A DNA stretch of 64,000 nt from Parcubacteria bacterium OLB19 (GCA_001567365.1 JZEL01000012.1:1215-65214), one strand, 5' to 3'. Counted from the first letter of the stretch, positions 1 through 21,372 are shown. Numbers and translations are program-made. Notes: generated by a model not told the origin, from the letters alone.

Positions 1-440
1 CTGGCAACACCTGCGCGTACGTAGCCGTGCGCCAAGAAGAAACTCAAGGCGAGGGTGTTCTTCGCCGAGACAGTGCAGTAGACCTGTCTGACCCGATACC
101 TCTTCGCATACTCGTCGAGTTTGCGGAGAAGCATACGACTGACACCTTTGCCTCTGGCTTCCTCACGGACAATCAGCGGGCTGATTTTGACTGTACCTTG
201 GTACTTGGACACGAAGTTGAGGATGCCGACGATGTTGCCGTCTTCGTCATCCAACGCCACATACATCAACTGTTCAGCCGAGAAGTGACCTTTCTTGTCC
301 TTGTTGCCTTTGGAGGCAGTTTCGACGATGCGCTTTGCGTGTGCCCGATGGTCGCCACCGTAGAACGGTTCAAGATGCTGGTGCATCATCTCCGCCACGA
401 CGGGCAAATCATCGAGCCGAACTCTTCGTACTCGTATCAT
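1..440 (-). CDS. GNAT family N-acetyltransferase; the gene's 3' end runs off the window start
   Basis: The minus-strand frame reads MIRVRRVRLDDL...IVREEARGKGVSRMLL, which carries the GNAT motif A (R/QxxGxG). ATG is at 440-438 with an AAAGGAG Shine-Dalgarno 9 nt upstream. The listed + ORF 27..509 is its antisense shadow. Confidence 0.7.
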   Translation of the reverse strand, partial: MIRVRRVRLDDLPVVAEMMHQHLEPFYGGDHRAHAKRIVETASKGNKDKKGHFSAEQLMYVALDDEDGNIVGILNFVSKYQGTVKISPLIVREEARGKGVSRMLLRKLDEYAKRYRVRQVYCTVSAKNTLALSFFLAHGYVRAGVA

Positions 441-509
441 TGCAAGGAACTCCTTTCGTTGATTTGTTGCAGGGCAGTCACCCGACTGCTTGAGCAACAA
501 AAAGGTTGA

Positions 510-529
510 CGTACCCATCGATGGGTACG
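510..529. repeat. Perfect 20-bp palindrome CGTACCCATCGATGGGTACG between the ASCH and GNAT genes
   Basis: The sequence is its own reverse complement. On the minus strand it is followed by TCAACCTTTTTG. It could be a terminator for the upstream genes or an operator. Confidence 0.5.
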
Positions 530-556
530 GGCTGGATATTACAATATAAAAACTAT

Positions 557-898
557 TTAGTCAATCAATTCAAGACGGATGCCTACGACACCATACTTCT
601 GCTCATCCTCGTCAGAGTAGAACTGTTTTATCTGGTTCAAAAGGAAATCACGGCTCTCTTCGCCAAAAAGTGATGGCTCGTGGTCCGCAAAAAGTTCTTT
701 GAATGTTTGGTAGCGCAACAGCCCCTTTACTACCGTAGTGACGTTGTTCTCTGACTTGTCATTTTCACTGAAAACAATCTGGTCGCCGATAGAGATTGTT
801 TGCCGCTTCTCATCAAAAAGGCGGCTTTCGATAACTTTTTTGCCAGATGCGATGTTGTTGTATGGCTCTGTCGCCAACTTCATTTGGTGCTGTTGCAT
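557..898 (-). CDS. ASCH-domain protein (PUA-like fold; same family as E. coli YqfB)
   Basis: The sequence MKLATEPYNNIASGKKVIESRLFDEKRQ...GDQIVFSE matches the ASCH N-terminal signature. The ORF extends to a TTG at 970, which would overlap the upstream gene. I prefer the ATG at 898 or 883. Confidence 0.6.
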   Translation of the reverse strand: MQQHQMKLATEPYNNIASGKKVIESRLFDEKRQTISIGDQIVFSENDKSENNVTTVVKGLLRYQTFKELFADHEPSLFGEESRDFLLNQIKQFYSDEDEQKYGVVGIRLELID

Positions 899-947
899 AG
901 TTGGTCTATTTATATCGCAAAAAAGACCATAAAACAAGGCGCGCTTT

Positions 948-1709
948 CTAAATCCGCTTGAGTTGTTCAATAACCCTATCTGCGAGGTCTCGCTTGTCTA
1001 TCATAAACGCATCCCACTTGTTGTTCCCTTTCTTGGACTTGCCAGAGACGAAGCCGAGCAGGTCATTACGGTCTACGTGTGCCATTTTGATAAAGTCAGG
1101 TGCGGGCACGAACCAGATGTAATCGTGCACATCACCCTTTGAAGTATCGAAGAGGCAAAATACAAAGCCCATAGAGAAACTATCAACCGCATTGTGCTTC
1201 TTCACGGTGGCAACAAATGGCTTGCTGAAATCGCCACTAAAGTTGCTCTTCACTTGAATGTATACGGACTTCAACGTGCCTTTCTCCTTCACGATGAGGT
1301 CAATGCCTTCATCATCGGAAATAGGACGGTAGCAAGAGAGGTTCTCGCCATAGAGCGTAATGAGTTCGGCTACTCGTGCCTCAACAATGTTGCCTTTCTG
1401 TGGTGAGTTGAGCGTTGAGGAGATTTTGTATTCCTTCTGCTCTTGCTCCTCCTTGAGAGGCGTTTCCTTCTCTGTATTGGTCCCGTTGAGAGCAAAAGTG
1501 CTTGGACCCGTCTTTACGAAAAGCGATTGGTCGCCACGCTTGTTCACGTCCACGACCAGTTGGGCGTTCATCGTTGCCTTTGGGGTTTTACCTGCGGTCT
1601 TGAGCCATCCACGCTTGAGGGCAATGTCAGTTATGTCGTCAGAGTGCATTGGCACGCCCGCTTCCTTCAGTATCTCGTATGCAACTCCTTTGAAAGTATT
1701 TGTGTTCAT
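948..1709 (-). CDS. HARE-HTH (winged helix) N-terminal domain plus C-terminal PD-(D/E)xK restriction-endonuclease-like domain; Mrr-like putative nuclease
   Basis: The N-terminus GVAYEILKEAGVPMHSDDITDIALKRGW...ATMNAQL resembles HARE-HTH / Mrr_N. The C-terminus has DDEGIDLIV...VYIQVK, a (D)...(E/Q)xK core. Its start lies 6 nt after the res stop. Confidence 0.55.
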   Translation of the reverse strand: MNTNTFKGVAYEILKEAGVPMHSDDITDIALKRGWLKTAGKTPKATMNAQLVVDVNKRGDQSLFVKTGPSTFALNGTNTEKETPLKEEQEQKEYKISSTLNSPQKGNIVEARVAELITLYGENLSCYRPISDDEGIDLIVKEKGTLKSVYIQVKSNFSGDFSKPFVATVKKHNAVDSFSMGFVFCLFDTSKGDVHDYIWFVPAPDFIKMAHVDRNDLLGFVSGKSKKGNNKWDAFMIDKRDLADRVIEQLKRI

Positions 1710-1715
1710 AGTGAT

Positions 1716-4325
1716 TTATGCGTTGAGGGCTTGGATGGCATCAACAACCTTCTGCTGATGCGAGAGTACCGTTCCATTGAAGATGATGCGGTACTCAAAA
1801 TCAGAGTTCAGGTCATTGAACTCTCTGAAGCCAACCTCCTTCATTAGTGGGTTACTGGTAATCTGGTGCTTTGAAAGTTCGCCCTTTTCGAGCCGCTCCT
1901 TTTCTGCCTTATAGGTCAGTTCCTCATCAGCACCTTTGACCTCAAGGACCACATAGCGTCCAAATGAGGTCTCGATAAGGAAGTCAGGAAAATACTTGGA
2001 GAGTTTGTGCGACCCGTCTATGAGGTTCTCTTGGTAATCGAAGAAAAACTCATTGTGTTTTTCGTTGGTGATACCTCCAGTGAAGTACACGTCCTTCACT
2101 TGTTCGCCGTCTTTGAGATGGGACCGCAAATAGTGGAACATTTCCAACTCATCCTTACTGTCGAAGTTGTAGGGATTTACGTGAAAGCCGAGACGAGACG
2201 TTCTCCCGTCCTGCTCTTCTTGTTCACGGTAGACCACCAAACTGCGTGCGAAGGCATCCGTGTCTGTTTCTTGGAGTTCACGTTTTACGTTGATTTTGAA
2301 TGGAAACGCCTTGGTTAGTTCAAGCGTCTCTTCCTTGATGGTCTCTTTCTTTTCATAGGCGATTGCTTGCGAAAGTATTTGGTCCGCTATGCCGTGAATG
2401 ACCAGATAGTTCTTCTCAACCGCCTTCACGAGGTCCTTTCGACTAATACCGTTGGCATCCAAAACCTTATTGATTTCGACAAACTTCAAGTGGGTCTTTT
2501 TCTGAATGAGTGCGGCAATGTCATAGAAGCCAAACTGTCGCTCGTGGGTCTCCACAGCGTCAGATGTAACGGTTATCGGGTCCCTATAGACTGCCTTGCC
2601 ATCATCGCTCAAGGCAATCTCTCGCTCTTGAATGATAGGGATGAGCCGCTTTTCAGGGACCTTCTTGAGGTCTATCTTTATTTGCTCTGGCTCTATTTTC
2701 TTTGATGAAAGTATCTCTACGAGTTTCCGCTTCACCTTCACGGTTCGCTTCTTCTCAACCACCAAATCAACTTGTACCTCGTTCTGTGGTCTGCCTGTGA
2801 GGTGCGTAATGTTGGTATTGAAGTTGTTTTCCAACTCTCTGTTCAAGACACGGTAGTTTTCATCGGAAAGAAATACACGTGCCTTTACGCTGTTGTCTCC
2901 GATACGTCGCAAACAACGGCACGATGCCTGCAAGACAAAGTTATTACTGGTGGAGTTCTTATAGAGAGCGACAGCAACGAGCGATTTGCAGTTCCAACCT
3001 TCCGTGCCTTTGTTCACGAGCAAAATAAACTGCTTTTCACTCTCTGGTGTATCGAGGCGGTTGAACTCGTAATCCGCCTCCTTCTTACGGTCTCCCGTGA
3101 ACGAAGAGTGCCACACAACTTTCTTTGAGAGGGCTATTTTCCGCTTCTGAAGGGCTTTGTCGAGGTTTTCTTCGAGTTGTTCGAGCATTGATATATCTGT
3201 CGTGTAGAAGGCGATTTTAGGTAGCCGTCCCGTAATACGCCCCTCGCCATATTCCTTCCAAAAAATCTCCACGACAGAGTTCACAAAGTCCTCTGATTGC
3301 ACATCATCGCTACTACCGTGATTGCTCACAATGACCTGCTTCAAGATGCCTTTTTCAACGCCTTGCTGAAGCCCGAAGGTGTATACCGTATCGGTCAGCA
3401 TTATGTTCTGCACATACGGAGTTCCCGTGAGGTTCGCCACAGTCACCACGTTAGTGTTCTCTGCGAGGTGGTGGATGGTCTTGCGGGACTGATTGAGTTT
3501 CTTTGACACATCTTCGCCGTATGAGTGATGTGCTTCATCTACGAACACAGCAAGGTTCTCAAGCCCTTGGATGGCAAGGAGACGCTTGTTGGTACTCTCT
3601 TTACGAAGTTCAAAGAGACGATTGCCACGATGCTCGTCAGTCCAGTTTCGGAGAATGATTTTCGATGAGTTGGAAACGATGACGTTGTAGTTGCCGAGTG
3701 GATTGAGTGGCGTTTCTGGCTTCTCCAGATACCAATACTTCACATTGAGTAGGATGTCCTCGTACTCACGTGGAATGACAGAGCCGTAATCAAAGGTCTT
3801 TATCTCCTTGAGCACTTCAACGATGCCTGTGTCTGCGGGACCAAAAACAAGAGCGTTTTTTGCGAACCGTGTATCTTCTGGGTGATGGAAGGAGACCACG
3901 AACTCGTACATCATCAAAACGCCCATCAAAATTGTCTTACCTGCACCCATCGTGAGAGCAAGTACGTAGTTGGCATAGCCGTATTCTGCAAAGCCGAGTT
4001 CTTCCAGTTTCTTTTGGATACGCTCCGTACGCTTCTCTTTGGAAAGGTCGCCCCACAGTTCAATCACGCCTTGCTCAAAGCCAAGCACCTTCAAAAAATC
4101 CGTGCTCTCACCGGAAAAGTCAGCGACTATCTCTGGGACTGGTCGGTTGTTTTGTATCTCCTTGAGGTAGATGTAGGTCTCAAGGGCTTCACGTTGCGGC
4201 TCGTGAAGAAAGTTGTTGCTCTCGATATGAGCAAGGATGTTGCGGGTCTCTGGGTAAATGCCGTTGTAGCCCTCTTCTCGCCACTGTCGGACCCTATGTT
4301 GTAGTTCTTGAACGAATAGTTGCAT
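1716..4325 (-). CDS. res: Type III restriction enzyme Res subunit (SF2 helicase domains plus C-terminal PD-ExK nuclease)
   Basis: Walker A is LTMGAGKT and the DEAH box is VFVDEAHHS. Motif VI is QASCRCLRR. The C-terminus has VVLEVKG. It starts 4 nt after the mod stop. Confidence 0.85.
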   Translation of the reverse strand: MQLFVQELQHRVRQWREEGYNGIYPETRNILAHIESNNFLHEPQREALETYIYLKEIQNNRPVPEIVADFSGESTDFLKVLGFEQGVIELWGDLSKEKRTERIQKKLEELGFAEYGYANYVLALTMGAGKTILMGVLMMYEFVVSFHHPEDTRFAKNALVFGPADTGIVEVLKEIKTFDYGSVIPREYEDILLNVKYWYLEKPETPLNPLGNYNVIVSNSSKIILRNWTDEHRGNRLFELRKESTNKRLLAIQGLENLAVFVDEAHHSYGEDVSKKLNQSRKTIHHLAENTNVVTVANLTGTPYVQNIMLTDTVYTFGLQQGVEKGILKQVIVSNHGSSDDVQSEDFVNSVVEIFWKEYGEGRITGRLPKIAFYTTDISMLEQLEENLDKALQKRKIALSKKVVWHSSFTGDRKKEADYEFNRLDTPESEKQFILLVNKGTEGWNCKSLVAVALYKNSTSNNFVLQASCRCLRRIGDNSVKARVFLSDENYRVLNRELENNFNTNITHLTGRPQNEVQVDLVVEKKRTVKVKRKLVEILSSKKIEPEQIKIDLKKVPEKRLIPIIQEREIALSDDGKAVYRDPITVTSDAVETHERQFGFYDIAALIQKKTHLKFVEINKVLDANGISRKDLVKAVEKNYLVIHGIADQILSQAIAYEKKETIKEETLELTKAFPFKINVKRELQETDTDAFARSLVVYREQEEQDGRTSRLGFHVNPYNFDSKDELEMFHYLRSHLKDGEQVKDVYFTGGITNEKHNEFFFDYQENLIDGSHKLSKYFPDFLIETSFGRYVVLEVKGADEELTYKAEKERLEKGELSKHQITSNPLMKEVGFREFNDLNSDFEYRIIFNGTVLSHQQKVVDAIQALNA

Positions 4326-4329
4326 AGGG

Positions 4330-6178
4330 CTATTTGACTGTTATTTCGTGGGTCTCAAAATACTCTTCGCCGAGTACATCCACGATTTTGACCGCCACGG
4401 TGTAAGTACCTCCTCTCTCATAGGTGTGTGAGTAGGCGGTTTCGACCAGTTCACCCTTCTTCTCCTTGTGAAGGAACGCCTCCGCATTGAACGATGTATC
4501 CGCTTTCTTCTGACCTTCACCGTAGTTCACGTCAATCACGATGTGCTCGATGGCTTGGCGGTAATCAAAAATGTTTACACGCTCCTTCATAGACAAGCGA
4601 CCATCGTTTTCGAGTTCAAGACGCTTCATCAAGAGTGGCGAATAGTAGTCCTTGACCTCAACAGAAAGGGTCTTGCCTTTGGTGATGTAAGAGATGCTTG
4701 CTTCCGTTGGTTTCTTGAAATCAAGTTCCTTTTTGTCGGTTTGGATGTCTCGTATCTCAATCTCAACGCCTGTCTTGTTTTCTTTCTTGGCGAAGTCACG
4801 TACATCAAGTTCCGCTCCACTACAAATGACAACCACCTTATTCTCAAAGGTATTTTCTTTCTGCTTACTTGCAGTTTTCACCGTGAAGAGGTCCTTGTTC
4901 TTTTTGATTGCGTCAATGATTTCAGCAATGTCCATCTTTGAGAGGACCCGATTTGGCGAAATGATTTTCACATAATCCTGTCCAAGCGTACCGTCAAAAT
5001 CACCACGGGAAAGTTCATCTATCCTATAGGTCTCGATGAGAAGTTGCCGTGCCTGAAGGTCATTATTGAACACGTCGTAATGATTGACGTTGTAGACCTT
5101 GAAAGCGGTGAAGCCCTTGAAGTCCTTGCCGAACAGATTTTCCTTCATCTGCTCTTTGATGGTCCTGTTCAAACGCTCTGTCGTGGAAATAATCGAACCT
5201 TTGTTGATGTCGCATCCAAGCCACCTACGATTGAGTTTTTGAGCCACAGCACACGTTGTACCAGAACCAACGAAGCAATCGAGTACAAGGTCTCCTTCGT
5301 TTGAACCATATCGAATGACACGCTCCAACAACTCTTCTTTTTTCTGGGTTGGATAATCTACATACTCGTTCTTCGAGATGGTGCGTCCGATGTCCCACAC
5401 ATCATCAATGACTTTATCGGAATACTCTGCGTAGATTTTGTTACCATCCTCATCCAAGAGATTGACCGTCTTACCATCAACTTTTTTACGCAACGCACGC
5501 TTGGTGGTCTCTTCCTTTTGGATACGTACTTCGTTGCCAGTAAAATCCGCACTCTTTGAGTAGTGATATATCGTGTCGTGGTTCTTATCGAGTGACTTGC
5601 CACCAGTTGCAAACTTGTCGTGGTAATGCCAGACAATCTCGTTACGAAGGTTCTCCTCGCCAAAAATCTCATCCAAAATGAGACGCAGGTGTGCGTTTTT
5701 GTGCCAATCGCAATGAAGAAATATAGAGCCAGTGTCGGCAAGCAACTCACGCATTATCAAAAGCCGCTCATACATAAACTGGAGGTACTCATCCTTCTCC
5801 CACATATCGGTGTATTGCATCTCCTCAATCACGCTCTGCTCTACACCCTCGACCTTTTGACCGTTTATTTTGACCTTCTTGATATAGTCCGCCTTGCTGT
5901 CAAACGGAGGGTCAATGTATATCAAATCCACCTTGCCTCGATACTCCTTGAGGAGGTGTGCGAGGACTTGCTTGTTGTCACCCCAAAAAAAGTTTATTCC
6001 AATCCTTCGCCTTTACGTCGCCGTAGACCTCTTTTTCTTGAGCGGGAAACCAATCAATACTCTTCGGTGCACGCTTTCCATACCACTCAAGGAGTGCTCG
6101 ACCCTTTGCGGCAGAAAGTTTTTGAACGGTGTTTTTATCGCCACCACTGGCGGTTTTTGTTGTTGATTTTGTTTTCAT
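4330..6178 (-). pseudogene. mod: Type III Mod N6-adenine DNA methyltransferase, split by a -1/+1 frameshift at a T7 tract (minus-strand sense). N-terminal 66 aa is ORF 5978..6178; the catalytic body is ORF 4330..5931.
   Basis: The body has DPPF (IYIDPPFDSK) and FxGxG (VLDCFVGSGTT) in beta-class order. The upstream ORF reads ...WYGKRAPKSIDW...KDWNKLFLG* and runs into GDNKQVLAHLLKEYRGKVDLIYIDPPF in the next frame. One fewer T at 5985-5991 restores a single ORF. Confidence 0.75.
5985..5991. repeat. A7/T7 homopolymer, followed by GGGG, at the mod frameshift site
   Basis: + strand CCCCAAAAAAAG, minus strand CTTTTTTTGGGG. The frame change maps here. Confidence 0.8.
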
Positions 6179-6180
6179 AC

Positions 6181-6340
6181 CTTGGTCGGGTTTTATTTTC
6201 TGGCGGTGTTCTATGTGACCAACACAAAACTCCCCACCAGACAGAAAGCGACAACCGTTTCCGATTGCCCGTAACCCTTTCGGATTACGACCCGACCAAG
6301 AGTGCTCCTGCTGATGAGGAGTTTTCTATCTTGGTCGGGT
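6181..6340. promoter_or_regulatory. Three copies of the 11-mer CTTGGTCGGGT immediately upstream of mod: direct at 6181-6191, inverted at 6290-6300, direct at 6330-6340. Candidate operator.
   Basis: Exact matches read off the sequence. Copy 1 abuts the mod start codon at 6178-6176. Confidence 0.4.
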
Positions 6341-6400
6341 GTTTGGTGCCATACCTCAAGTGAGGGTTAGGCACGCTTGTAATGTTTTATGTCTTTTTCA

Positions 6401-6640
6401 TCATAGTTTTTGATTGAGCATCTTCACTATATCTTCCTTGCGGTAGCGTCGAACACGCTTTGCCCCAAGACGAATAGCAGGCAAGATGCCTTGCTTGTCC
6501 CATTGTCGAAGGGTATTTGGATGCACCTTCAACAACTCACACGCCTCGCTCAAAGTGAGTAGTTCTGGTACTTCTTTACTGTTGTCGTCTTTTTTTTGCC
6601 ATTTATTTTCTACCTCACATTTGATACCATTATCATACAC
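6401..6640 (-). CDS. Excisionase/MerR-type helix-turn-helix DNA-binding protein (Xis-like; possible controller of the R-M operon)
   Basis: The C-terminus ELLTLSEACELLKVHPNTLRQWDKQGILPAIRLGAKRVRRYRKEDIVKM is a classic excisionase-family HTH. The ORF runs to 6814 but would then overlap the + gene. An in-frame GTG at 6640 is a plausible start. Confidence 0.55.
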   Translation of the reverse strand: MYDNGIKCEVENKWQKKDDNSKEVPELLTLSEACELLKVHPNTLRQWDKQGILPAIRLGAKRVRRYRKEDIVKMLNQKL

Positions 6641-6695
6641 GACAGACACAACGTTCACAATGTGCACGGACCTGTGGATGCGGATGTAAATGTAG

Positions 6696-8945
6696 ATGGC
6701 ACGCAAAAAGAAGACAGTTGAAGACGGCTTGGCAGAAGCCGACGTGCTCCTGCCTTTGGATACCCTAAAAGAGATAGAGGGCTTCTTTCCGCTTGGAAAG
6801 CCAACCATTGACACGACTTACGGGATGCTTTCGCTCAAGGTAAATGAGATAAACGAGAGCGAGAAAGAAATCATCTACGAAGGGTCCAAAACCAACTTGT
6901 CACGCACCGTGAACATCCACGGCGAATACTCCAAGGAGGAGGTCATTTTCTATACCTACGTTCTTCTACACGCCAAATACGACAGTTGGAACCCGTTTAC
7001 ATCAGTGAAATCAGAGAAGGCGGACAAGAGTAACTTGGGTGATTTCTGCCACGACTTTTTTACCAAGGCGAAGGACTATACCTACAAAGGCGACAGAGAT
7101 GAGTTCAGCACAAAACGCATCTTCGAGATGTTTTTGTACTGCTCCGTACAAACCAAGGAGGAATACGACCTACCGCCATTTGAGGAGTATTGGCGTGTTT
7201 TTGAGGCAAAAGATGTCCTGTTGCCAACAACCTATGAACTTCTCTTCAAGCACGAAAAGAACTCCATCAGAAAGGAGGCGGTAGCCCAGAAAGCGTTTGC
7301 CGCACAGAAGGAGTTTATCTACCTACGATACCTGCTTGAGCAACTCTTTTCACGGAAGGAGTACAAGCACTTCATTGACCTCTATCTATCGAATACAGAT
7401 GTGGTAACAGGACACGGGACTTTTCCCTATGAAGCAGAACTGTACTTTGCGTTCGTTGAGAGTTGTATTGCATTGAAGGACTTTGAAACCCTTCAGAAAA
7501 ACCTTGTAGACAGGGACGCTATGCACTTGGGAGGACGCTATAGCAAATCCTTCTTTGAAGGGATTGCAAAGTATTTTGACGGCAAATATGCCGATGCCGA
7601 GGTTCACTTCAAGAAAGCCATTTTGTCTGATGATGAAGGTCGAGACGTGACCCGATGTGCCACCATCTTCTATATCGCCACCTTGCTCAAGCAGAAGAAA
7701 AACGATGCGGCAAAGGGATACATCTTCGACCTCAAGCCACGAGAACCATACGCCGAGAACTACGATTTGGATTATTTTGGTTATAAGGAAATCGAGAAGG
7801 AGTTACTTGCAGAACTCCAGAAACTCGATGTATCAGAAGAGCAGAAAAACGCTCTGAAGTTCTATGAAGCGTCTATCCTCTATGAGGGTTCTTGGCATCA
7901 CCACGACAAGGAAACAACATCTTCTTTGGTGAAGAAACTCAAGGAAGTACGTGGTTATGATAACGACTACACCTACCACCATCTTCTCTCTGAAGGATAC
8001 GCAAAACTTGGAGTTCACGACAAAGCGTACAAGGCATTACTGAAATCGTTTGCCTTTCAAGAGGGAGACATAGACGTTGGCTACTCTGCCTCTATAGAGA
8101 AAACATCGCCTGATTTTCAGGAAGGGTTGCTCTCTTATCTTGAAAAAGATGTGCTCATATATGGCAGTAAAGCGTGGAGTTCTTTGGCAAGAAATGAGTT
8201 GAGGAGTATTGCTGATTATTGGTGGAAGAACAAGAAATACGCTTTATTGACCGAACTTTGCAATCTGATTGTTGAATACGATGCGTCCTTCAATGACTTT
8301 GAGGACTACCTATTTGAGTTTGCCTACTCGTTCAAGGAAATCGGAGAAGCAGAAGACGCAAAGCACTATTACGAACTCTATATACAGAAAAAAGGTGAAA
8401 ACTCATCTGTGCTCAACAATCTCGCTATCATTTATGAGCAGTTGGGAAACTTGAAAAAAGCCAAGGAACTTATCAAAAAAGCACACGAACTTACGGATGG
8501 AAATGATGGTGTCGTCAATCGCAATAAAAAGCGTTTGGTAGACGATGAGAAATCAAAAGGGACCGCTACTGTACCAGAGAAGAAGACCACGGAAAATGCA
8601 AAGCCCGCAACCGACTTCATCGAGTATGACCCCGCCTATGGCAAACTCGTTTACCGTGGAAAAGAGAAAATGGTCAGAAGTTCACCGATGATGCCGATTA
8701 TGCTCAAAGAACTCTTTGGAAATCCTGCCAACACAAAAAATGCGGTGGACCTGCTTGAAATACTCAACAGGGACACCACTTCATCCAATCGAAGCATACT
8801 TGATTGCATCAGGCAGATAAACAAGAAAATCAAAGAACTGGGCGTGAAGGAAGACCCGTTTACATATAGGTCCGACAAAGTGCTCACCAAGGAAACATAC
8901 GTCCCGCTCCTGCGAATGAAGGTGAGCGAAGTTGAACCAAAGTAA
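6696..8945 (+). CDS. Large (749 aa) TPR-repeat protein with a winged-helix-like C-terminal region; function unknown
   Basis: It is a long uninterrupted ORF in GC-rich DNA. There is a TPR-like stretch (NLAIIYEQLGNLKKAKELIKKAHEL). No catalytic motif was recognised. Confidence 0.55.
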   Translation: MARKKKTVEDGLAEADVLLPLDTLKEIEGFFPLGKPTIDTTYGMLSLKVNEINESEKEIIYEGSKTNLSRTVNIHGEYSKEEVIFYTYVLLHAKYDSWNPFTSVKSEKADKSNLGDFCHDFFTKAKDYTYKGDRDEFSTKRIFEMFLYCSVQTKEEYDLPPFEEYWRVFEAKDVLLPTTYELLFKHEKNSIRKEAVAQKAFAAQKEFIYLRYLLEQLFSRKEYKHFIDLYLSNTDVVTGHGTFPYEAELYFAFVESCIALKDFETLQKNLVDRDAMHLGGRYSKSFFEGIAKYFDGKYADAEVHFKKAILSDDEGRDVTRCATIFYIATLLKQKKNDAAKGYIFDLKPREPYAENYDLDYFGYKEIEKELLAELQKLDVSEEQKNALKFYEASILYEGSWHHHDKETTSSLVKKLKEVRGYDNDYTYHHLLSEGYAKLGVHDKAYKALLKSFAFQEGDIDVGYSASIEKTSPDFQEGLLSYLEKDVLIYGSKAWSSLARNELRSIADYWWKNKKYALLTELCNLIVEYDASFNDFEDYLFEFAYSFKEIGEAEDAKHYYELYIQKKGENSSVLNNLAIIYEQLGNLKKAKELIKKAHELTDGNDGVVNRNKKRLVDDEKSKGTATVPEKKTTENAKPATDFIEYDPAYGKLVYRGKEKMVRSSPMMPIMLKELFGNPANTKNAVDLLEILNRDTTSSNRSILDCIRQINKKIKELGVKEDPFTYRSDKVLTKETYVPLLRMKVSEVEPK

Positions 8946-9030
8946 ACCTAACTTTGCTCAACAGGCAAAAAGTACGCTGACTGCGTGCTTTTTCTTTTTG
9001 GCTGAAAGAGTGCACTTACCACTAAAGCCA

Positions 9031-9333
9031 ATGCAAATGTTTATGCGTAAAAACAAGCAAGACGAGGGGCATATCCCCTTGGATGATTACACAAACTATT
9101 ACTACACCAACGACATTGACGTTGCCTCAATGCTCGTATGCAAGGGCTACAACCTCAAGGAGGTTGTAGCAATCTCGCACAACAAAGCGACCTTTGTGTT
9201 CAAGAACCACACTGCCATCAACGATGCCGTAGACGGATTTTGGAGCAATCGTATAGAGGTCCGCCCACTTGAGTTTGCAAATGCTCGCAAGAACTTGAAA
9301 TCACGCATATACGGGATGCGGAAAGGTTATTAG
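9031..9333 (+). CDS. Small protein (~100 aa) of a type seen next to mobile-element replication genes; function unknown
   Basis: The ORF 8932..9333 starts at TTG and overlaps the TPR gene. ATG at 9031 gives MQMFMRKNKQ...YTNDIDVASMLVCKGYNLKEV...FVFKN...RIEVRPLEF. Confidence 0.4.
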   Translation: MQMFMRKNKQDEGHIPLDDYTNYYYTNDIDVASMLVCKGYNLKEVVAISHNKATFVFKNHTAINDAVDGFWSNRIEVRPLEFANARKNLKSRIYGMRKGY

Positions 9334-9346
9334 CCCTCACCGCACA

Positions 9347-10699
9347 ATGTATATGCAACAAGAAAAACTAAACGAAAAGAAGGAGAAGCCAATCACAAAG
9401 ACCTCAATCATTACACCAGAGGCAATCTACGAGATGGGCTTCAGTCGTGTTGAGAACAAGACCTATTTCTTCAAGGCAGACAGGCGTGGACTGACCGAAA
9501 GTTTCCTTGAGCAGGTAGAGATTGGCGGCAAGAAGTATATCCCGATACCACCAGACAATAATCTCGTGGACAAGGGCGTGGTTCTCTTTCCTTCAATGCC
9601 TCTGCCGTATGAAAGCGAGGCGGCAATCCTCAAAGAGATACAGGACTTCATCCACAAGCATCTCGACATCAGCGAGGTGTTCGAGCAGATAGCCACCTAT
9701 TACGTTCTCTTCACGTGGCTCTACGACAGGTTCAATGAGGTCCCATATCTCCGAGCCATCGGCGACTTTGGAAGCGGTAAATCACGCTTCCTACAAGCCA
9801 TTGGCATCCTCTGTTACAAGCCCATATTCACTGGAGGTGCGACTACGCCAAGTCCTATTTTCAGGATAGTGAACGAGGTCAAAGGCACACTCATCATTGA
9901 TGAAGCCGATTTCAAGTTCTCCGATATGACTTCTGAAATCGTGAAGATACTCAACACGGGATACCAGAAAGGCATACCCGTTCTGCGGTCCGAGGGTAAG
10001 GGCACGTTCGAGGTGAAAGCGTATGACGTGTTTTGTCCGAAAATCGTAGCCACTCGTGAGACCTTCTCCGACAAAGCCCTTGAAAGCAGGTTCTTGGTTG
10101 AGGAGATGGGTGCGGGAAAACTTCGTGACGGCATCCCACGAACGCTCGATGAGGACTTCTATCAGGATGCGGAAGCCATCCGAAACAAACTCTTGATGTG
10201 GCGGCTCAAAAACTACTTTCAGCCAATAGAACGCAAGGAGGAGTTGATTGACGGTATCCATCCACGACTGAACCAGATAGTCATACCGCTTCTTTCAATC
10301 ATCAAAGATGAGGACATCAGAAACCGTCTCAAGACCTTCATTATCCAATACAACACCGAACTCGTTGCGGACCGTGGTTTGTCTTGGGAAAGCGACATTG
10401 TGTTCGCCATCCTCAAACTTGAGTACGCAAAAGGCGTGTCCGAAGTCACGGTCAAAGAGATTACTGATGAAGTCAATCGAGAAAGCGAGATGGACGATGA
10501 CCGCCTTCAAGCACGCAAAGTGGGGTGGTACTTGCGAACAAAACTCCAACTCAAATCCTACAAGACCCGCAAGGGGTTTGTCCTTTCCTTCAAAGAGAAC
10601 CGCAAACGGTTGGATATGTGGAAGGAACGCTTTGGCATCACTGATGCCGACATACGAGGTGAACAAGTGAACGATGTGAACGTCTCTGAAAACTTTTAG
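9347..10699 (+). CDS. P-loop NTPase, putative primase/helicase-type replication or mobilisation protein of the island
   Basis: Walker A is GDFGSGKSRF and Walker B is TLIIDEADF. A downstream Asn motif VKILNTGY has SF3-like spacing. The 327-aa minus ORF 10295..11278 is its antisense shadow. Confidence 0.55.
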   Translation: MYMQQEKLNEKKEKPITKTSIITPEAIYEMGFSRVENKTYFFKADRRGLTESFLEQVEIGGKKYIPIPPDNNLVDKGVVLFPSMPLPYESEAAILKEIQDFIHKHLDISEVFEQIATYYVLFTWLYDRFNEVPYLRAIGDFGSGKSRFLQAIGILCYKPIFTGGATTPSPIFRIVNEVKGTLIIDEADFKFSDMTSEIVKILNTGYQKGIPVLRSEGKGTFEVKAYDVFCPKIVATRETFSDKALESRFLVEEMGAGKLRDGIPRTLDEDFYQDAEAIRNKLLMWRLKNYFQPIERKEELIDGIHPRLNQIVIPLLSIIKDEDIRNRLKTFIIQYNTELVADRGLSWESDIVFAILKLEYAKGVSEVTVKEITDEVNRESEMDDDRLQARKVGWYLRTKLQLKSYKTRKGFVLSFKENRKRLDMWKERFGITDADIRGEQVNDVNVSENF

Positions 10700-10717
10700 C
10701 AGATAACAAACAACACT

Positions 10718-11227
10718 ATGACAAACACAAAAGGTGGTCCAAAAACCGAAGAAGGAAAGGCAGTATCCCGCTTCAACGCCCTCAAGCACGGGCTGTTGAG
10801 CAAGGCGGTCCTGCTTGAAAGCGAGGATGCAAAAACGCTCAACGAACTCACTACGGGTATGCGTGAGGAGTTTAGCCCGCAAGGTCCTCTTGAAGAGATA
10901 CTTGTAGACAGGATTGTGTCCTGCTACTGGCGGCTCCGAAGGGCTGTGTGGGTCGAGAAGAACGCAATGGATTGGTATGAGGAGGATGAGGAGATGATGG
11001 TCTTCCCAGAGCCAGACGAGCAGGTAGCCCGCAAGCGTATCAAGAACACACTTGGAAACGACAGTATCGAAAAGGTGCTCCGATACGAGACCGCTATTGA
11101 GCGGAGTATGTTCCGTGCACTCCACGAACTTGAGAGGTTGCAAGCAAAAAGGAATGGCAAAGATACGCCAATCCCTGCTGTGGTTGATGTAACCGTGGAT
11201 AGTTCGTTTGGTAAAAACACTCTCTAA
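10718..11227 (+). CDS. Hypothetical protein (169 aa)
   Basis: Clean ORF in the GC-rich island with an ATG start. No recognisable motif. Confidence 0.4.
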   Translation: MTNTKGGPKTEEGKAVSRFNALKHGLLSKAVLLESEDAKTLNELTTGMREEFSPQGPLEEILVDRIVSCYWRLRRAVWVEKNAMDWYEEDEEMMVFPEPDEQVARKRIKNTLGNDSIEKVLRYETAIERSMFRALHELERLQAKRNGKDTPIPAVVDVTVDSSFGKNTL

Positions 11228-11284
11228 AAAGAAGTGAAAAAGAGCCAGAAACCCTATTGATTTCGGAAGAAAAAACACACGATT

Positions 11285-11902
11285 ATGAGTAAATCAGAAG
11301 CAGATTGGTGCAAAAAGATAGAAATATGGTGGCTCCTGAAGGGGGTCAAGGAAACAAATGGATACAAACGCTCCACGGTGTCTTGGGGTGAGAACGGCTC
11401 ACACGGAAGCATCACTGTTGAGGTATCCATTTGGGGCGATGAGAAATATGCCCGCTTCCTTTACAGTCAGACGGACCACAGCGGCGAGAAGAAGGATTTT
11501 GATTACAAGGTCCCGATTATTGAGACCCCGTGCCACTTTGGAGGTTCACGGTATTGGTTTCAGTGCTCGCTCTATAAAGCGGATAAATACTGCGGGCGGC
11601 GTGTTGGCGTTCTCTACAAGGACGGTGACTGGTTCGGATGCCGTCATTGCTACGAACTGACCTACAGTTCAAGGAACAAGGATAGACGATACAAGCACTA
11701 TCCGACTTTTCGAGTGCTCGAACTTCATCAGCAAATAGACAAACTCGAAGAGAAAGCGAAGCGATATACCTACAAAGGTAAGCCAACCAAGAAGCGTCAG
11801 AGGTTAGAGAAACTTTATCGTCAAACAATGTTCTACGTTCGTGCCTTCCGTGCAAGCGAGAAAGGTATTGATTTTGACGTATCTCGTGGTCGAGATTTTT
11901 AG
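11285..11902 (+). CDS. Hypothetical Cys-rich (zinc-ribbon-like) protein (205 aa)
   Basis: Cys pattern CHFGG...C(x14)CGRR...CRHC. Clean ORF. Confidence 0.4.
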   Translation: MSKSEADWCKKIEIWWLLKGVKETNGYKRSTVSWGENGSHGSITVEVSIWGDEKYARFLYSQTDHSGEKKDFDYKVPIIETPCHFGGSRYWFQCSLYKADKYCGRRVGVLYKDGDWFGCRHCYELTYSSRNKDRRYKHYPTFRVLELHQQIDKLEEKAKRYTYKGKPTKKRQRLEKLYRQTMFYVRAFRASEKGIDFDVSRGRDF

Positions 11903-11924
11903 TCGAAAATGTTATGATTAGTGG

Positions 11925-11993
11925 GCTACACAAAGGTGAATACGATGCTCCACGGTTTGAACCTAACGAGGGGCAACGCCCGCCTTTGTGTAG
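11925..11993. repeat. 12-bp inverted repeat pair (GCTACACAAAGG ... CCTTTGTGTAGC) with a 46-bp spacer, ~170 bp upstream of the recombinase gene
   Basis: Exact reverse-complement arms at 11925-11936 and 11983-11994. Confidence 0.35.
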
Positions 11994-12162
11994 CAACAGG
12001 GCATCAAAGCGTTGTCCCTCATTGAGTTCAAGCCAGCCCTTTTCCAAGGAAACGCTTGATGCTCTTGAAGAACTTGGCGACGTGCTCCGAGGTATCCGCC
12101 GCCGAATGATTGCCGAGGGATATGAACTGGTGAACGGTCATATCCAAAAGGTGCAATCGTAA

Positions 12163-13866
12163 ATGTATATGAAGAAAGCAAGCGTCAAAACAGAAAAGGA
12201 CCTCATTGAAGAGATACTCTCTGGCAAGTATCGTGATTTTTATTTGATATACAACCGCAAGAGTACAGACGAGGCGGACAACCAGAAGAACTCTATTTCA
12301 TACCAGAAGGCAGAAAACAGCCGCTACGCTGTGCGTGAGCGTCTGCCTATTGCTCAAATCACTCTCAAGGGGTTTAGTACGAACGGCATCATCTCCGAGA
12401 AGCACTCTGGCTTCAAGGAGGATTTTGACGTGATGATAAATGACGAAGGATTGGTTCAGTACCGCATTGACCGCCCGAAGTTCCAAAAGATGCTTCAGTT
12501 TGCCAGTCAGGGCTACTTCAAGGGTGTTGTGTGTCTTTGTTGGGACCGCATCAGCCGCAATAAAGGAGATGATACTGTCATACGCAAACTAATGCGTAAG
12601 GGTGTTGATTTCAGATTTGTATACGCCAACTACGACAAAACCAGTTCAGGTGCTCTGCATATGGACATTGACGGGATGTTCTCACAACATCACTCACGAG
12701 TAACCAGTGAGAAGGTCACGCTGACAACTCGCAACAATCGGGAGAAAGGTATCTGTACCTATCGTGCACCTATCGGCTATTTGAATGAAGGCAAAATGGA
12801 CCACAAGCCATTTGACCCTATGCGTGCACCAATCATCAAGAGGATGTTTGAACTCTACGACACAGGAGATTGGAGTTTGGCTGACATTGCCCGCTACGCC
12901 AACGAGCAGGGCTTCACGACTGTCCCTATGAGGCGAAGGAGAACAAAGGAAGAAATGCTCGATGAGGACTTTGAGATGGAAGAAATCCCACAGGTCTCAC
13001 GTCCCGTGACAGAGAACCATATCAGCCGCATCCTCACCAATCCGTTCTATACGGGAAAGGTCCTCAACTCTGAAGGTAGATATATTCCGAGCATCAGCCA
13101 CGAAGCACTGGTAGATGAAGAGGTATTCAATCGGGTCCAAGCCGTCCTCAAAAAGAAGCAGACGAGCATCCACTACACCGAGAAACTCGACCAACCGCTC
13201 CGAGGGATTGTACGTTGTGCACATTGTGAACGTGTATACACTCCTTACACCAAGAAAGGCATCCAGTATTACAACTCACGATGCACCAAGGATTGCCAGA
13301 ACACTCTCAAGAACATCAACTTTACCTTTCTCGCCGAGAAAATAGAGGGTCTGCTTTCGGGTCTCTACTTTACGGACGAAGAGATTGGACAGATGGACGC
13401 TCGCATCGGCACTGATGTTGCACTCCTTGAAGAAAAGCGACAGAAGGAGTTGGACCAGATGGAACGCAAGAAGCGAAAGATACGAGAGGACCTTGCATAC
13501 ATCCGCTCGAACAAACTCACGCTCCTCAAGACAGGCGTATACACGCCAGAAGGTCTCATCGAAGAGGAAGATAAGTTGAACGCCGAACTCGCCGACCTTC
13601 AAAGCAAGGAGCAGGTATCTGACGTTGCGATGCACGAGACAATGAAGGATGTTCAAAAACTTTCAGAACTCGTAAAAGAGGTTGTTCCTTATTACTCTTT
13701 TGCAAAACCGCACGAAAAGGAGGCAATCGTTCGTATTATTTTTTCAGAACTCTACCTTTCTGAAAATACGTTGAAATATAAATGCAAAACGCTTTCGAGT
13801 GTCTCGAAAGCCGTTTGCAACCTGTGTGTGACCCCACGGAGAATCGAACTCCGATTTGCAGGATGA
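12163..13866 (+). CDS. Large serine recombinase (integrase)
   Basis: The N-terminus has YLIYNRKSTDEADNQ, the catalytic Ser context Y-x-R-x-S-T-x-x-Q. Recombinase-domain features include CAHCERVYTPY...YYNSRCTKDC Zn-ribbon-like cysteines and a C-terminal coiled coil. The ORF tail overlaps the tRNA 3' end. Confidence 0.85.
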   Translation: MYMKKASVKTEKDLIEEILSGKYRDFYLIYNRKSTDEADNQKNSISYQKAENSRYAVRERLPIAQITLKGFSTNGIISEKHSGFKEDFDVMINDEGLVQYRIDRPKFQKMLQFASQGYFKGVVCLCWDRISRNKGDDTVIRKLMRKGVDFRFVYANYDKTSSGALHMDIDGMFSQHHSRVTSEKVTLTTRNNREKGICTYRAPIGYLNEGKMDHKPFDPMRAPIIKRMFELYDTGDWSLADIARYANEQGFTTVPMRRRRTKEEMLDEDFEMEEIPQVSRPVTENHISRILTNPFYTGKVLNSEGRYIPSISHEALVDEEVFNRVQAVLKKKQTSIHYTEKLDQPLRGIVRCAHCERVYTPYTKKGIQYYNSRCTKDCQNTLKNINFTFLAEKIEGLLSGLYFTDEEIGQMDARIGTDVALLEEKRQKELDQMERKKRKIREDLAYIRSNKLTLLKTGVYTPEGLIEEEDKLNAELADLQSKEQVSDVAMHETMKDVQKLSELVKEVVPYYSFAKPHEKEAIVRIIFSELYLSENTLKYKCKTLSSVSKAVCNLCVTPRRIELRFAG

Positions 13867-13900
13867 AAACCTGCTGTCCTAGCCGTTAGACGATGGGGCC
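13829..13900 (-). tRNA. tRNA-Glu (anticodon UUC)
   Basis: Minus-strand read: GGCCCCA-T-CGTCTAACGGCTAGGAC-AGCAGG-TTTTCAT-CCTGC-AAAT-CGGAGTTCGATTCTCCG-TGGGGTC-A. It has a 7-bp acceptor stem and a D-arm identical to bacterial tRNA-Glu. U33 and A37 flank the anticodon TTC. The T-loop is TTCGATT. CCA is not encoded. Confidence 0.8.
13877..13896. repeat. Direct repeat copy 1 (TCCTAGCCGTTAGACGATGG); the 5' half of the tRNA-Glu gene
   Basis: 20/20 identical to 14004-14023. Confidence 0.7.
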
Positions 13901-13944
13901 GAATATTTAATTGTACTTTGGACTTCATCGCTATTGGCGGTACC

Positions 13945-14001
13945 GGTTTTCATTGATGAAAACCATTCCTGCGGATAAAACAGTATCCCATACTGTTTTA
14001 T
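13945..14001. repeat. Two perfect hairpins between the tRNA and repeat copy 2: GGTTTTCAT-TG-ATGAAAACC and ATAAAACAGTAT-CCC-ATACTGTTTTAT
   Basis: 9-bp and 12-bp perfect stems read directly. Neither has an adjacent U-tract on either strand. Confidence 0.5.
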
Positions 14002-14003
14002 TA

Positions 14004-14023
14004 TCCTAGCCGTTAGACGATGG
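14004..14023. repeat. Direct repeat copy 2 (TCCTAGCCGTTAGACGATGG); an orphan tRNA 5'-half fragment and candidate att remnant
   Basis: 20-bp exact match. The flanking acceptor bases differ (GGCTCCA vs GGCCCCA). No matching 3' half follows, so this is a fragment and not a second tRNA. Confidence 0.7.
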
Positions 14024-14073
14024 AGCCTAAATACTCAATAAAGTTTTTTATTCTAGTCACTAAGATCAGAGCT

Positions 14074-14146: not shown

Positions 14147-16082
14147 TTAATTTTTGGTGCGCATAGTAGACTTGATATCGAAGCGCGGATTGACCTTTTT
14201 GCCTGGATTAAAAATATCATCAGGATCAAAGATGTTTTCAGTTTGTACAAACAATTCAAGCATATTCTTGCTGAACATCTTGTTTAGATGCGGAGTGCGG
14301 ATAATACCATCATTATGTTCACCACAGATATTACCCTTATATTTAATGGCCGTATTAAAGAAACGTTCAGCCATTTTTTCTACCAGAAGTGGGGTGGTTT
14401 TTTGAGTAAAATCTAAAAGTGGGTAAAAGTGAAAATGCCCATCACCACCATGGCCATGCACAGCTGAAGTAACATTAAACTCCTTAAAAAGTTTTTTTGA
14501 TTTCTACAAAAAACTTAGACAAATTTTCTGGAGGAACTGTCATATCTTCAAGAAAAGCGGCTGGGCGCTTGCTAGAGTCTTGGAGTTTGGAAAGGGTATA
14601 GCTTGCTCGTCGTATTTGCCACAACATCTCCGCCTCGACACGACTAGTTACCACCCTGGCTCTAGTTTTACCAGTACTAATAGCGCTAACAATTTCATAA
14701 CGTTGATATTTATCGGTAGTAGCTTTGTCTAAAGTAATAAGCACTGTAAATTCTGGGGTTTTTCTACCATAACGCACATGATAGGTCGTATACATATTTA
14801 ACATGGTACGGTAATAGGATAGTCCAGATAAATATTTTTTGAAGAAGTCGGGATTCTTTAGTGCCAAATCAAAGGTTAGAGCGTCAAACAATTCTACATT
14901 AATCGGATTATATTCAAGTGCCTTAGTAATAACTCTTGCCGTGTCTTGCAAATCAAATACCGGTATCACCAAAAGCGTAGTATCATGCTCTATCGGCAAA
15001 GCGCGCATAGTCACACTGGTAACAATACCGATTGTACCTTGTCCACCAGTAATAAGCCGAGTTGGATCAAAGACACCTTTACCTTTCTTAAAGCTCTCTA
15101 CTCCATCAGGAAAAGCGTGCCATAAAGCATAACCAGCACTATTCTTCTTGGTCTTGGGTTTATTCTTCAAAATTTCTTTTTCATTTTTTTCTACCAACGA
15201 AAGTATATCTTGCAGAATACGAGCATATTCGTGTTTTTGTTTGGCGATAGTTTTATATTCTTTCCAATTTAATGGTTTTAGGGTGTAAGTGTTACCGTCA
15301 CACAAAACCACATCGAGAGACTCCACCCAATCAGCACAATGTCCATAGCGTAAAGAATCGGAACCCGCCGCATTATTTGCGATAGAACCACCGATACTAC
15401 AAATATCTTTTGAGGAAGGGAAAGGTGGTAAGTAAGCGTCGTATCGTTTTAAACGTTTTTCGACATCACGCCACATCGCTCCTGGTTCACACGTAATGGT
15501 AATTTTGTCTTTTTTCACACTCACTTCACCAATGTGATGCAAATGTGCACACATATCAATAACAACAGAGTCAGTTAAAGATCCGCCTCCAAGTCCAGTA
15601 CCAGCAGCGCGGGGTGTAAGCGAAAGAGAAGCAAAGCGTTTTGTCTCTCTAGCCACCACTTTTACCGCTATCTCAACATCAGTCTTATTTTTTGGCTGAA
15701 TAACCACTTGCGGACGAACTGAAAAAATACTTTCATCAGTACTATATTTTTCCAATACATGCTTATCAGTTGAAACTCCACCTCTAAAACCAGCTTCACG
15801 TAACATCTTTTCAATAAGAAGGTGCCCTAAGGGATTACGCTTAATGATTGATATAAGTGGTTTTGGGGAAACTTCTGGCAATTCAGGAGAAATAACCTTT
15901 TCGGTTTCCTTACTCTTTTTGGTTAGACGGACTTTGCTCGTAGCTTTGCTGGCTTTAGTTTTGATAGGAGTTTTTTTAACCTTTATAGTCTTAGCTTTCT
16001 CAACAACCACAGCTTTAGCTGTTCGCTTTGTTTTTGACTTAGCGCGCTTTACCAACAAAGCTGAGGAAGAGCTTTCGTTCAT
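14147..16082 (-). CDS. FAD-linked oxidase / FAD-binding dehydrogenase (GlcD-like) with a Lys/Ala-rich N-terminal tail. It is split into ORFs 14484..16082 and 14147..14461 by a frameshift at an A7 tract.
   Basis: The FAD_binding_4 region reads RPQVVIQPKNKTDVEIAVKVV...AAGTGLGGGS. The C-terminal piece carries HGHGGDGHFHF. Six instead of seven A at 14492-14498 fuses the two frames (...FVEIKKLFKEFNVTSAVHGHGGDG). Confidence 0.7.
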
Positions 16083-16130
16083 AGTTTTATTCTACCGCAT
16101 CTGATAGTAAAATATGTTACGCTATTCCAC

Positions 16131-17856: not shown

Positions 17857-17915
17857 TATCGACAGTGGCCAGCAATGGTCTATTGTTATTGATTATTAGT
17901 TTTTTAACAATTTTT

Positions 17916-21293: not shown

Positions 21294-21329
21294 ACATTTA
21301 TTTTTCTACAACATTTCAACTCAAAATAA

Positions 21330-21369
21330 AACAACCCTTAATCTTAAACAATGAGAAGGGTTGTTTTTT
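21330..21369 (+). terminator. Rho-independent terminator after rmuC
   Basis: AACAACCCTT...AAGGGTTGTT followed by TTTTTT. Confidence 0.65.
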
Positions 21370-21372
21370 ATG

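Follow-up and report, generated by a model that had tools for sequence, protein, structure and literature searches.

A GC-rich island at the 3' edge of a tRNA-Glu gene in a Paceibacteria chromosome: very probably an integrated mobile element with a large serine recombinase

The question raised by this locus is why the first 13.8 kb of a contig assigned to Parcubacteria bacterium OLB19 differ so clearly from the remainder, and what they represent. We analysed a stretch of 64,000 nucleotides (GCA_001567365.1, JZEL01000012.1:1215-65214), referred to here as the window, for which an earlier note made from the sequence had described everything left of ~13,900 as GC-richer than the rest. Recalculation confirmed this description. 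The GC content is 46.8% in 1-13827 versus 37.3% in 13901-64000 (Mann-Whitney p = 4.5e-15, 500-nt windows), and the GC content at third codon positions (GC3) is 0.48-0.60 per gene on the left versus 0.17-0.36 for all but two of the right-hand open reading frames (ORFs), with pooled values of 0.564 and 0.290, respectively. In tetranucleotide usage, the island halves correlate with each other at 0.94 and seven host chunks among themselves at 0.90-0.97, while the correlation between the island and these chunks is only 0.30-0.48. The step is sharp and coincides with a tRNA-Glu(UUC) gene. The 50 kb to the right of this gene encode a core chromosomal set (ribosomal proteins, RpoA, DnaK/J, DnaB, several aminoacyl-tRNA synthetases and MurG), and the relatives of the host FAD-linked oxidase, 56-77% identical, belong to Paceibacteria/Parcubacteria-type metagenome-assembled genomes (MAGs) in all but one distant match. 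According to these two results, the AT-rich side is the host, a Patescibacterium (Candidate Phyla Radiation, CPR) of the Paceibacteria/Parcubacteria group, as the earlier note had supposed. We conclude that positions 1-13833 very probably belong to an integrated mobile element, site-specific and recently acquired by this AT-rich chromosome, of which they make up the 13.8 kb on the recombinase side.

The same element was found in a second context. A scaffold of the ENA database, L130, was reached through a type III restriction protein (Res) 100% identical to that of the window. This scaffold aligns with window positions 957-13904 at 99.68% identity, and over 1165-13827 (12.7 kb) the two copies are separated by 20 differences, namely 17 substitutions and three single-base indels (99.84% identity). 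In L130, the island adjoins a different tRNA-Glu gene (anticodon CUC, nine differences from that of the window) and different flanking genes. Both ends are visible there, which gives a complete element of 13.4 kb; its far end reads GTGACCCCATTGTATGGATTTCAGAACTC and is followed by host genes (a Mur ligase gene and a gene resembling those of penicillin-binding proteins). GC3 amounts to 0.56 in the island, 0.47 in the flanks of L130 and 0.29 in the window host. The 99.84% identity, together with an island GC3 nearer to that of the L130 flanks, indicates that the AT-rich host received the island very recently, the donor being a Patescibacterium of higher GC content.

When the proximal and distal junctions of L130 were joined in silico, a 585-amino-acid (aa) recombinase ORF was obtained that ends in CDPIVWISELVGKRDF..., the C-terminal tail of the family described below. 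This restored ORF parallels that of a sister element, L051, an 11,834-bp contig which is circular because its ends overlap by 127 bp. The circle carries an uninterrupted 584-aa recombinase gene and encodes homologs of Res (71% identity), of the type III methyltransferase Mod (76%) and of a 450-aa protein (82%), plus the helix-turn-helix (HTH), DUF5659, 169-, 205- and 82-aa proteins.

We then asked where exactly the element stops and the host begins. In the comparison of the window with L130, shared island sequence extends to 13833. The next base, 13834, is the first to differ between the two hosts; it belongs to the acceptor stem and is paired, in each genome, with that genome's own tRNA 5' strand. 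Moreover, the two junctions of L130 have only TGTGACC(CC) in common. As a consequence, the crossover lies within 13827-13833. The boundary between element and host is thus this core rather than the edge at ~13,900 given by the earlier note, and the tRNA-Glu gene itself is of host type. The overlap that the note had seen between this gene and the 3' end of a large serine recombinase gene is real. The last ~13 codons of the recombinase ORF are antisense to the tRNA, and the ORF stops inside the anticodon loop because of a 1-nt deletion at 13791 (a single G versus GG in L130), which means that the last ~25 codons no longer follow the reading frame of the family. The position of this stop had suggested that the crossover might lie in the anticodon loop, an idea that was dropped since the stop is an artefact of the deletion.

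The dinucleotide at which strands are exchanged can be proposed from the symmetry of the attachment (att) sites, attP being that of the element and attB that of the chromosome. Among 19 attP sequences, dyad symmetry is best when centred on the TG 5' of TGACCC (13827-13828), with 5.26 of 8 in the best symmetric window versus at most 4.0 at other offsets. An outer motif, (C/T)GG(T/C)TTTC, occupies positions 14-21 of both attP arms, and the T-loop TCGAAC on the tRNA side lies ~5 bp nearer the centre than TCcGAAC in attP. Rutherford and Van Duyne are said to describe serine integrase sites as having a short core and a dyad-symmetric attP whose outer motif lies ~5 bp further out than in attB, and the ~5-bp spacing shift seen here would fit this attP/attB difference. 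We infer TG (13827-13828) to be the crossover dinucleotide. In tRNA numbering it occupies positions 74-75, directly after the discriminator base. Because of this position, the mature tRNA would be untouched.

The junction could be compared across a whole family. When metagenomes were scanned with an alignment built from four recombinases, at least 285 relatives came up, from which 80 loci were kept (57-81% identity); 70 of these had room enough beyond the gene for tRNA linkage to be judged. Of these 70, 44 have an antisense tRNA gene whose offset hardly varies (36 Glu, four Ala, two Leu, one Arg and one Trp). The members at tRNA-Arg, tRNA-Ala, tRNA-Leu and tRNA-Trp, with the same offset, are L060, L069, L070, L086, L090, L112, L113 and L122, and the part common to all the tRNA targets is the T-loop. 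About 25 related genomes keep the gene order Pif1 helicase, FAD oxidase, tRNA-Glu; on the 3' side of tRNA-Glu comes a hypervariable stretch of differing length, after which conserved host genes are met again. In 6 of these genomes, a serine recombinase gene lies directly 3' of tRNA-Glu, antisense into it. These junctions, together with the copy in another context and the circular sister, bear out the proposal in the earlier note of a horizontally acquired integrative element. One locus, L032, is a tandem array of two elements, one per recombinase clade. The second of its copies ceases to resemble the L029 protein precisely at the expected tRNA 3' end, and the junction is therefore at the 3' edge of the tRNA. 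The other clade (~26% identical) was also seen in L007, L014 and the first copy of L032, where it runs antisense into tRNA-Glu in the same frame.

What follows the conserved sequence TGTGACCCCAC depends on the presence of the tRNA. In most tRNA-free loci, the recombinase ORF runs through TGTGACCCCAC into a conserved tail, CDPxxWLSELL (DNA TGGCTTTCCGAAC), whereas in tRNA-linked loci the rest of the tRNA follows TGTGACCCCAC in place of this tail. From such an alternation one would expect attP to be located within the recombinase gene, and the displaced tail segment at the far end of the integrated element. Indeed, nine integrated loci contain the predicted core and tail segment at 5.5-11 kb upstream from where the recombinase gene ends, some of them in several decayed copies; L029 contains four successive distal att scars. 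At the tRNA-Arg locus L060, the distal core GTGCGCCCAC resembles the 3' end of that tRNA, GTGCCCCCAC, with one mismatch. The distal signature (TGTGACCCCA, then TGGATTTCAGAAC within ~6 nt) is absent from both strands of the window. The island must therefore exceed 13.8 kb, with a left end outside the window, as the earlier note had expected.

We propose the following scenario. The free element would be a circle whose attP is located in the 3'-terminal part of the recombinase gene, with ~30 codons still to follow up to the stop. The recombinase would pair this site with an attB made of the tRNA gene's 3' acceptor strand, its T-arm and the 3' trailer, and strand exchange would occur at the dinucleotide just past the discriminator base (TG, 13827-13828). 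The tRNA would be left intact, and the recombinase gene would then read antisense into it and acquire a new, junk C-terminal tail. In this exchange the last ~30 of the 585 recombinase codons would be replaced, and the displaced tail-coding segment (CDPxxWLSELL..., DNA TGGCTTTCAGAAC) would mark the far end of the island. Excision would bring back the full-length recombinase gene; the predicted circle junction is ...GCAACCTGTG TG TGACCCCATTGTATGGATTTCAGAAC..., and at the predicted empty site the tRNA-Glu 3' end would be joined straight to the host trailer. The presence of the same element at two sites, the circular sister and the restored ORF speak indirectly for this predicted attP x attB integration and excision by the recombinase.

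The enzyme itself has the features of a large serine recombinase. Its N-terminal catalytic domain matches Pfam Resolvase (E = 2e-14), and the residues Y-x-R32-K-S34-T-D...Q41 and D128-R-x-S-R132 are invariant in the alignment. The C-terminal part matches Pfam Recombinase (E = 1.2e-15) and, below the curated cut-off, Zn_ribbon_recom (E = 1e-3), with four conserved Cys. Its identity to any annotated phage or plasmid recombinase does not exceed 28%; the closest curated matches are XisF and CcrB/C, and the closest among solved structures is the TP901-1 integrase.

The other features are collected in Table 1. The family architecture is a backbone (the DUF5659, 450-, 169-, 205- and 82-aa proteins and the recombinase) with a small excisionase-like HTH gene and variable cargo, which in the window comprises type III restriction-modification (R-M), HARE-HTH nuclease-like, TPR, ASCH and GNAT genes. 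The accessory set listed in the earlier note (R-M, nucleases, an Xis-like HTH protein, a primase/helicase-like NTPase and the large serine recombinase) is matched by this content.

Table 1. Coordinates, strands and supporting matches of the island genes, the attachment site and the adjoining tRNA and repeat module in the window
Feature	Position	Strand	Basis and remarks
GNAT acetyltransferase, runs off window edge	1..518	-	Pfam Acetyltransf_1 E = 1e-13; GC3 0.65; distal cargo, not in L130
ASCH-domain protein, probable start 898	557..970	-	Pfam ASCH E = 3.5e-10; phrog_19935; GC3 0.52; distal cargo, not in L130
HARE-HTH protein, weak PD-(D/E)XK / Mrr-like nuclease signature	948..1709	-	Pfam HARE-HTH E = 1.4e-19; PDDEXK_5 and Mrr_cat weak
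Type III Res, helicase-type	1716..4325	-	Pfam ResIII; 100% identical to P0001; relatives named type III restriction enzyme
Type III Mod methyltransferase	4330..6178	-	Pfam N6_N4_Mtase E = 2.7e-50; PADLOC MTase_III E = 6e-60
Small HTH_17/MerR-type protein, excisionase-like, 66 aa in L130	6402..6602	-	Pfam HTH_17 E = 8.7e-13; phrog_66 'excisionase and transcriptional regulator'
TPR-repeat protein, 749 aa, variable cargo	6696..8945	+	Pfam TPR_19 and other TPR families
DUF5659 protein, first backbone gene, 98 aa in L130	9037..9333	+	Pfam DUF5659 E = 4.9e-12; in 17 related loci
P-loop NTPase, 450 aa, best-conserved backbone gene	9347..10699	+	Relatives fused to Prim-Pol; 82% identical in L051
169-aa conserved backbone protein	10718..11227	+	In 16 related loci; no family match
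205-aa backbone protein, Cys/His-rich (zinc-ribbon-like)	11285..11902	+	In 27 related loci; no family match
82-aa protein, stop abuts recombinase start	11914..12162	+	No family match
Large serine recombinase, 567 aa	12163..13866	+	Pfam Resolvase, Recombinase and Zn_ribbon_recom; phrog_95 integrase E = 6e-59
Recombinase-proximal attachment site: element P arm, crossover core, tRNA B' arm	13787..13868	+	attP forms, tRNA and distal junctions compared
Crossover core TGTGACC	13827..13833	+	Common to both ends of the complete copy L130
Host tRNA-Glu(UUC), intact, integration target	13828..13900	-	ARAGORN; Rfam tRNA 58.7 bits
Repeat module, outside the island	13901..14030	-	103-nt spacer, two hairpins, palindrome 13945-13964, then 24-27-nt copy of tRNA 5' part

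The type III R-M cargo consists of adjacent Res and Mod genes. Mod is intact in L130 (615 aa) and frameshifted in the window, where an extra A at ~5985 (A7 versus A6) splits it into 66 + 533 aa; similarly, the start of the HTH gene is out of frame in the window, with an extra T at ~6590 (T8 versus T7 in L130). The TPR protein is present in L130 and L075 and absent from the circle L051 by tblastn. Homology with L130 ends at window position 957, beyond which the window has the ASCH and GNAT genes and L130 a gene for a 159-aa membrane protein. Twelve of the 41 differences from L130 cluster at 1017-1164, in the 3' end of the HARE-HTH gene, and 957-1164 looks like a mosaic joint at which distal cargo was exchanged. 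At the leftmost end, an ORF at 27-509 (+) proved spurious, the gene there being the GNAT acetyltransferase gene on the minus strand. Exact-product look-ups gave no match for the HARE-HTH, ASCH and recombinase proteins of the window, the latter with two start codons, and Rfam returned the tRNA as its only hit at the junction.

Four backbone proteins (450, 169, 205 and 82 aa) have no match in Pfam, PHROGs, NCBIfam or PADLOC, and the 450-aa protein has none among PDB sequences. The latter has more than 2,900 relatives, and every one with a named source comes from Patescibacteria. In two relatives, P0227 and P0228, the protein is joined to Prim-Pol and PriCT_1 domains. The 450-aa protein is thus probably the NTPase/helicase partner of a primase in a replication module, and these fusions to primase domains lead us to suggest that the circle might replicate autonomously. 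The 82-aa gene is found in 63 of the 80 related loci, always immediately 5' of the recombinase gene, which makes its product a candidate accessory or directionality factor.

Several observations weigh against parts of this picture. The leftmost 956 bp of the window, with the ASCH and GNAT genes, have no counterpart in L130 and are assigned to the island by their composition. The circle L051 is a sister element, with 71-82% protein identity, and not the window's own circle. The replication role proposed for the 450-aa protein comes from domain fusion, its AlphaFold model being poor in the NTPase core and Foldseek giving non-significant winged-helix matches only. The overall dyad symmetry of attP is modest (8.5 of 26) and concentrated in the one outer motif. 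Finally, many tRNA-free relatives lie in long, non-circular contigs of other bacteria, and attP-in-gene integration may fail for part of the recombinase clade. We had considered all 26 tRNA-free relatives among the 70 loci as free elements, an idea that was dropped since L051 is the only circular one and the long contigs resemble chromosomal or conjugative regions of other bacteria. Distant members in long contigs of apparently non-CPR bacteria (L082, L096 and L128) have an uninterrupted tail, and their neighbours encode defence-type proteins (TIR, OLD/AAA_15 and a large helicase-nuclease) and a TrwB-like coupling protein.

The three frame-breaking indels relative to L130 (at 5985, 6590 and 13791) can be read either as early decay or as homopolymer assembly errors, and they bear on two alternatives to an intact integrated element. 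If they are decay, the window copy would now be an immobile remnant, inactivated in the recombinase tail, the HTH gene and Mod; the replaced distal segment and the piles of decayed att scars at related loci, four of them in L029, are in keeping with such a fate. However, two of the three indels, as well as a frameshift in the host FAD-oxidase gene, lie in or beside homopolymer runs (A7, T8 and T7), and this coincidence suggests systematic homopolymer errors in the assembly. Moreover, 17 substitutions in 12.7 kb relative to L130 leave little time for decay, and the catalytic and DNA-binding domains of the recombinase are untouched. We therefore consider a dead remnant unlikely, without giving it a negligible weight. 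The same homopolymer indels could be invoked for an assembly chimera, in which two Paceibacteria genomes (37% versus ~46% GC) would have been joined through the conserved tRNA-Glu gene. The composition step falls exactly at this 73-nt conserved gene, and a 99.84%-identical island lies beside another tRNA-Glu in a GC-matching host; both observations speak for a chimera. Yet the window tRNA differs from that of L130 at nine positions, including 13834, and because this host-specific base lies 6 nt from island sequence, the k-mers at the junction do not come from an L130-type genome. The longest stretch common to both tRNAs is ~22 nt. Furthermore, the layout relative to the island (FAD-oxidase, tRNA-Glu, recombinase ... 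Mod, Res) is also found, with homologous host flanks, on the independent 229-kb contig L101, and a matching layout is present in the GTDB genomes L029 and L046. With these arguments, all drawn from assembled sequence, a small residual doubt is left, and a chimera seems extremely improbable.

The nature of the element also had to be considered, as the integrase and excisionase-like genes match PHROG families, the ASCH protein matches a phage family, and the small size and tRNA location resemble phage-inducible chromosomal island (PICI)-like satellites and some tycheposons (10.1101/2020.12.28.424599). The island could then be a prophage, or a phage satellite that hijacks capsids, integrated at the tRNA. 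With regard to an integrative conjugative or mobilizable element, domain scans of the island proteins found no relaxase or type IV secretion system (T4SS) domain, an origin of transfer (oriT) being beyond the reach of these scans. Against a phage nature, PHROGs and Pfam revealed no capsid, portal, terminase, tail or lysis gene in the window island, L130 or L051, the recombinase has no relatives in IMG/VR viral contigs, and annotated phages offer nothing above 28% identity. A phage or satellite thus appears highly improbable, and we keep the reading of a site-specific mobile element that integrates by its own serine recombinase and that may move from cell to cell.

How does this element compare with known systems? 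The serine-integrase island is of a known general kind; the target and the arrangement of the att sites are unusual, and the family is large and apparently undescribed. As in other large serine recombinases (phiC31, Bxb1, TP901-1, A118, SCCmec Ccr and Anabaena XisF), the protein combines resolvase catalytic, recombinase and zinc ribbon domains, and a short crossover core, an attP of modest dyad symmetry and a ~5-bp difference in spacing between attP and attB would fit the sites of such elements. Unlike in these systems, the target is the 3' edge of a tRNA gene and attP is inside the recombinase ORF. In the accessible literature, serine integrases are not known to target tRNA genes, and a review of integrative and mobilizable elements (IMEs) describes serine-recombinase elements as inserting within dispensable genes (PMC5704250). 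The integration site recalls Islander-type islands of tyrosine integrases, with an intact tRNA at a hypervariable hotspot, the integrase gene beside it, defence cargo, and tandem arrays and decayed scars at the same site. The differences are that the island's recombinase, the only one present, is of the serine type, that no displaced tRNA fragment is found, only a 7-10-nt core being common to both ends (L130), and that the crossover would lie past the discriminator base instead of in the anticodon or T loop.

The position of attP inside the integrase ORF is a feature shared with the SSV-type 'suicidal' integrases (SSV1, pTN3, pT26-2), in which attP lies within the own gene and integration into a tRNA gene alters the product; these are tyrosine recombinases, reported to be exclusive to Archaea (PMC8371274). 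Here, the recombinase is a serine enzyme and the host is bacterial. In addition, the SSV-type gene is split into two large parts, whereas here ~30 of 585 codons would be swapped, with the catalytic and DNA-binding domains kept in one piece. The nearest ecological analogs are the tycheposons of Prochlorococcus, elements of ~10 kb in streamlined genomes with integrase, excisionase and primase-helicase genes plus cargo, which are inserted at tRNA hotspots, also as tandem arrays; in 910 of 937, the recombinase is of the tyrosine type (10.1101/2020.12.28.424599). They belong to a different host phylum and show no sequence relationship to the backbone genes of the island. Searches of the openly searchable literature found no description of such elements in Patescibacteria.

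One may go a step further, albeit tentatively. It is possible, although we would not count it as probable, that this undescribed family, abundant across Patescibacteria, is a self-replicating, plasmid-like integrative circle that carries the first clade of serine integrases specialised on tRNA genes. Such enzymes would read the universal T-arm and acceptor end and retarget via the inner half-site, and the attP-in-gene tail swap could act as a built-in switch between integration-competent and integrated states. This switch would be analogous to the archaeal suicidal integrases, but in bacteria and in another recombinase superfamily. If this is true, the near-identical copies in two species document ongoing gene flow, including that of defence systems, between CPR lineages. 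The mobile elements of CPR/Patescibacteria are poorly described, which bears on the question of how these tiny-genome episymbionts exchange genes. With its thousands of backbone-gene relatives, att sites that are defined, a circle and a 99.8%-identical pair, the family offers a testable vehicle of horizontal transfer, for example of type III R-M. Its recombinase clade would contradict two generalisations of the accessible literature, namely that tRNA genes are targeted by tyrosine integrases only and that integrases with attP in their own gene are archaeal only. The enzymes are also candidate genetic tools for CPR hosts and candidate compact integrases, given a short, near-universal tRNA target and att sites predicted to the base.

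On the other side of the tRNA gene, outside the island, lies a repeat module (13901-14030) in which the 5' part of the tRNA is repeated directly (13877-13903 versus 14004-14030, 25/27 identical). The copy sits at the native tRNA position, right after the conserved intergenic motif CTGCTATAAATATGCCACTTG, and is followed by a hairpin, a perfect palindrome, GGTTTTCAT-TG-ATGAAAACC, that resembles an anticodon arm, ~43 nt, and then the intact tRNA. The earlier note had pointed to a 20-bp repeat as a possible att repeat; this does not hold, as the repeat is on the wrong side of the tRNA and is missing from L130, and the crossover of the family is at the tRNA 3' edge. For the same reasons, a scheme in which the 27-nt repeat and palindrome were the island's own att scar, with an element carrying its own tRNA-Glu, was abandoned. 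Its absence from the identical island copy in L130 shows that the module does not depend on the island. L005 and L044 also contain the module but not the island, with a compensatory hairpin change in L044; the versions in L005 and L014 are longer. The module is probably a scar left by another element, which may have targeted the tRNA 5' half and supplied its own promoter. L044 contains at 15890-16160 (-) a partial tRNA-Glu copy (nt 1-52), then ~190 nt with an inverted piece resembling the tRNA 3' end, then a full tRNA. L005 and L047 have a related segment of ~100 nt on the 3' side of their tRNA-Glu, and all these pieces are probably decayed att debris.

In the host part of the window, the FAD-linked oxidase gene next to this module is read as two ORFs (14147-14461 and 14484-16082), with the frameshift beside a T7 run. 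Further on, a PG_binding_1 protein (17865-19070) has a long acidic region of imperfect repeats with a 21-nt period (18590-18990), and the segments 21001-22000, 34001-35000 and 52001-53000 are far more AT-rich than the remainder, with a GC content of 0.28-0.31.

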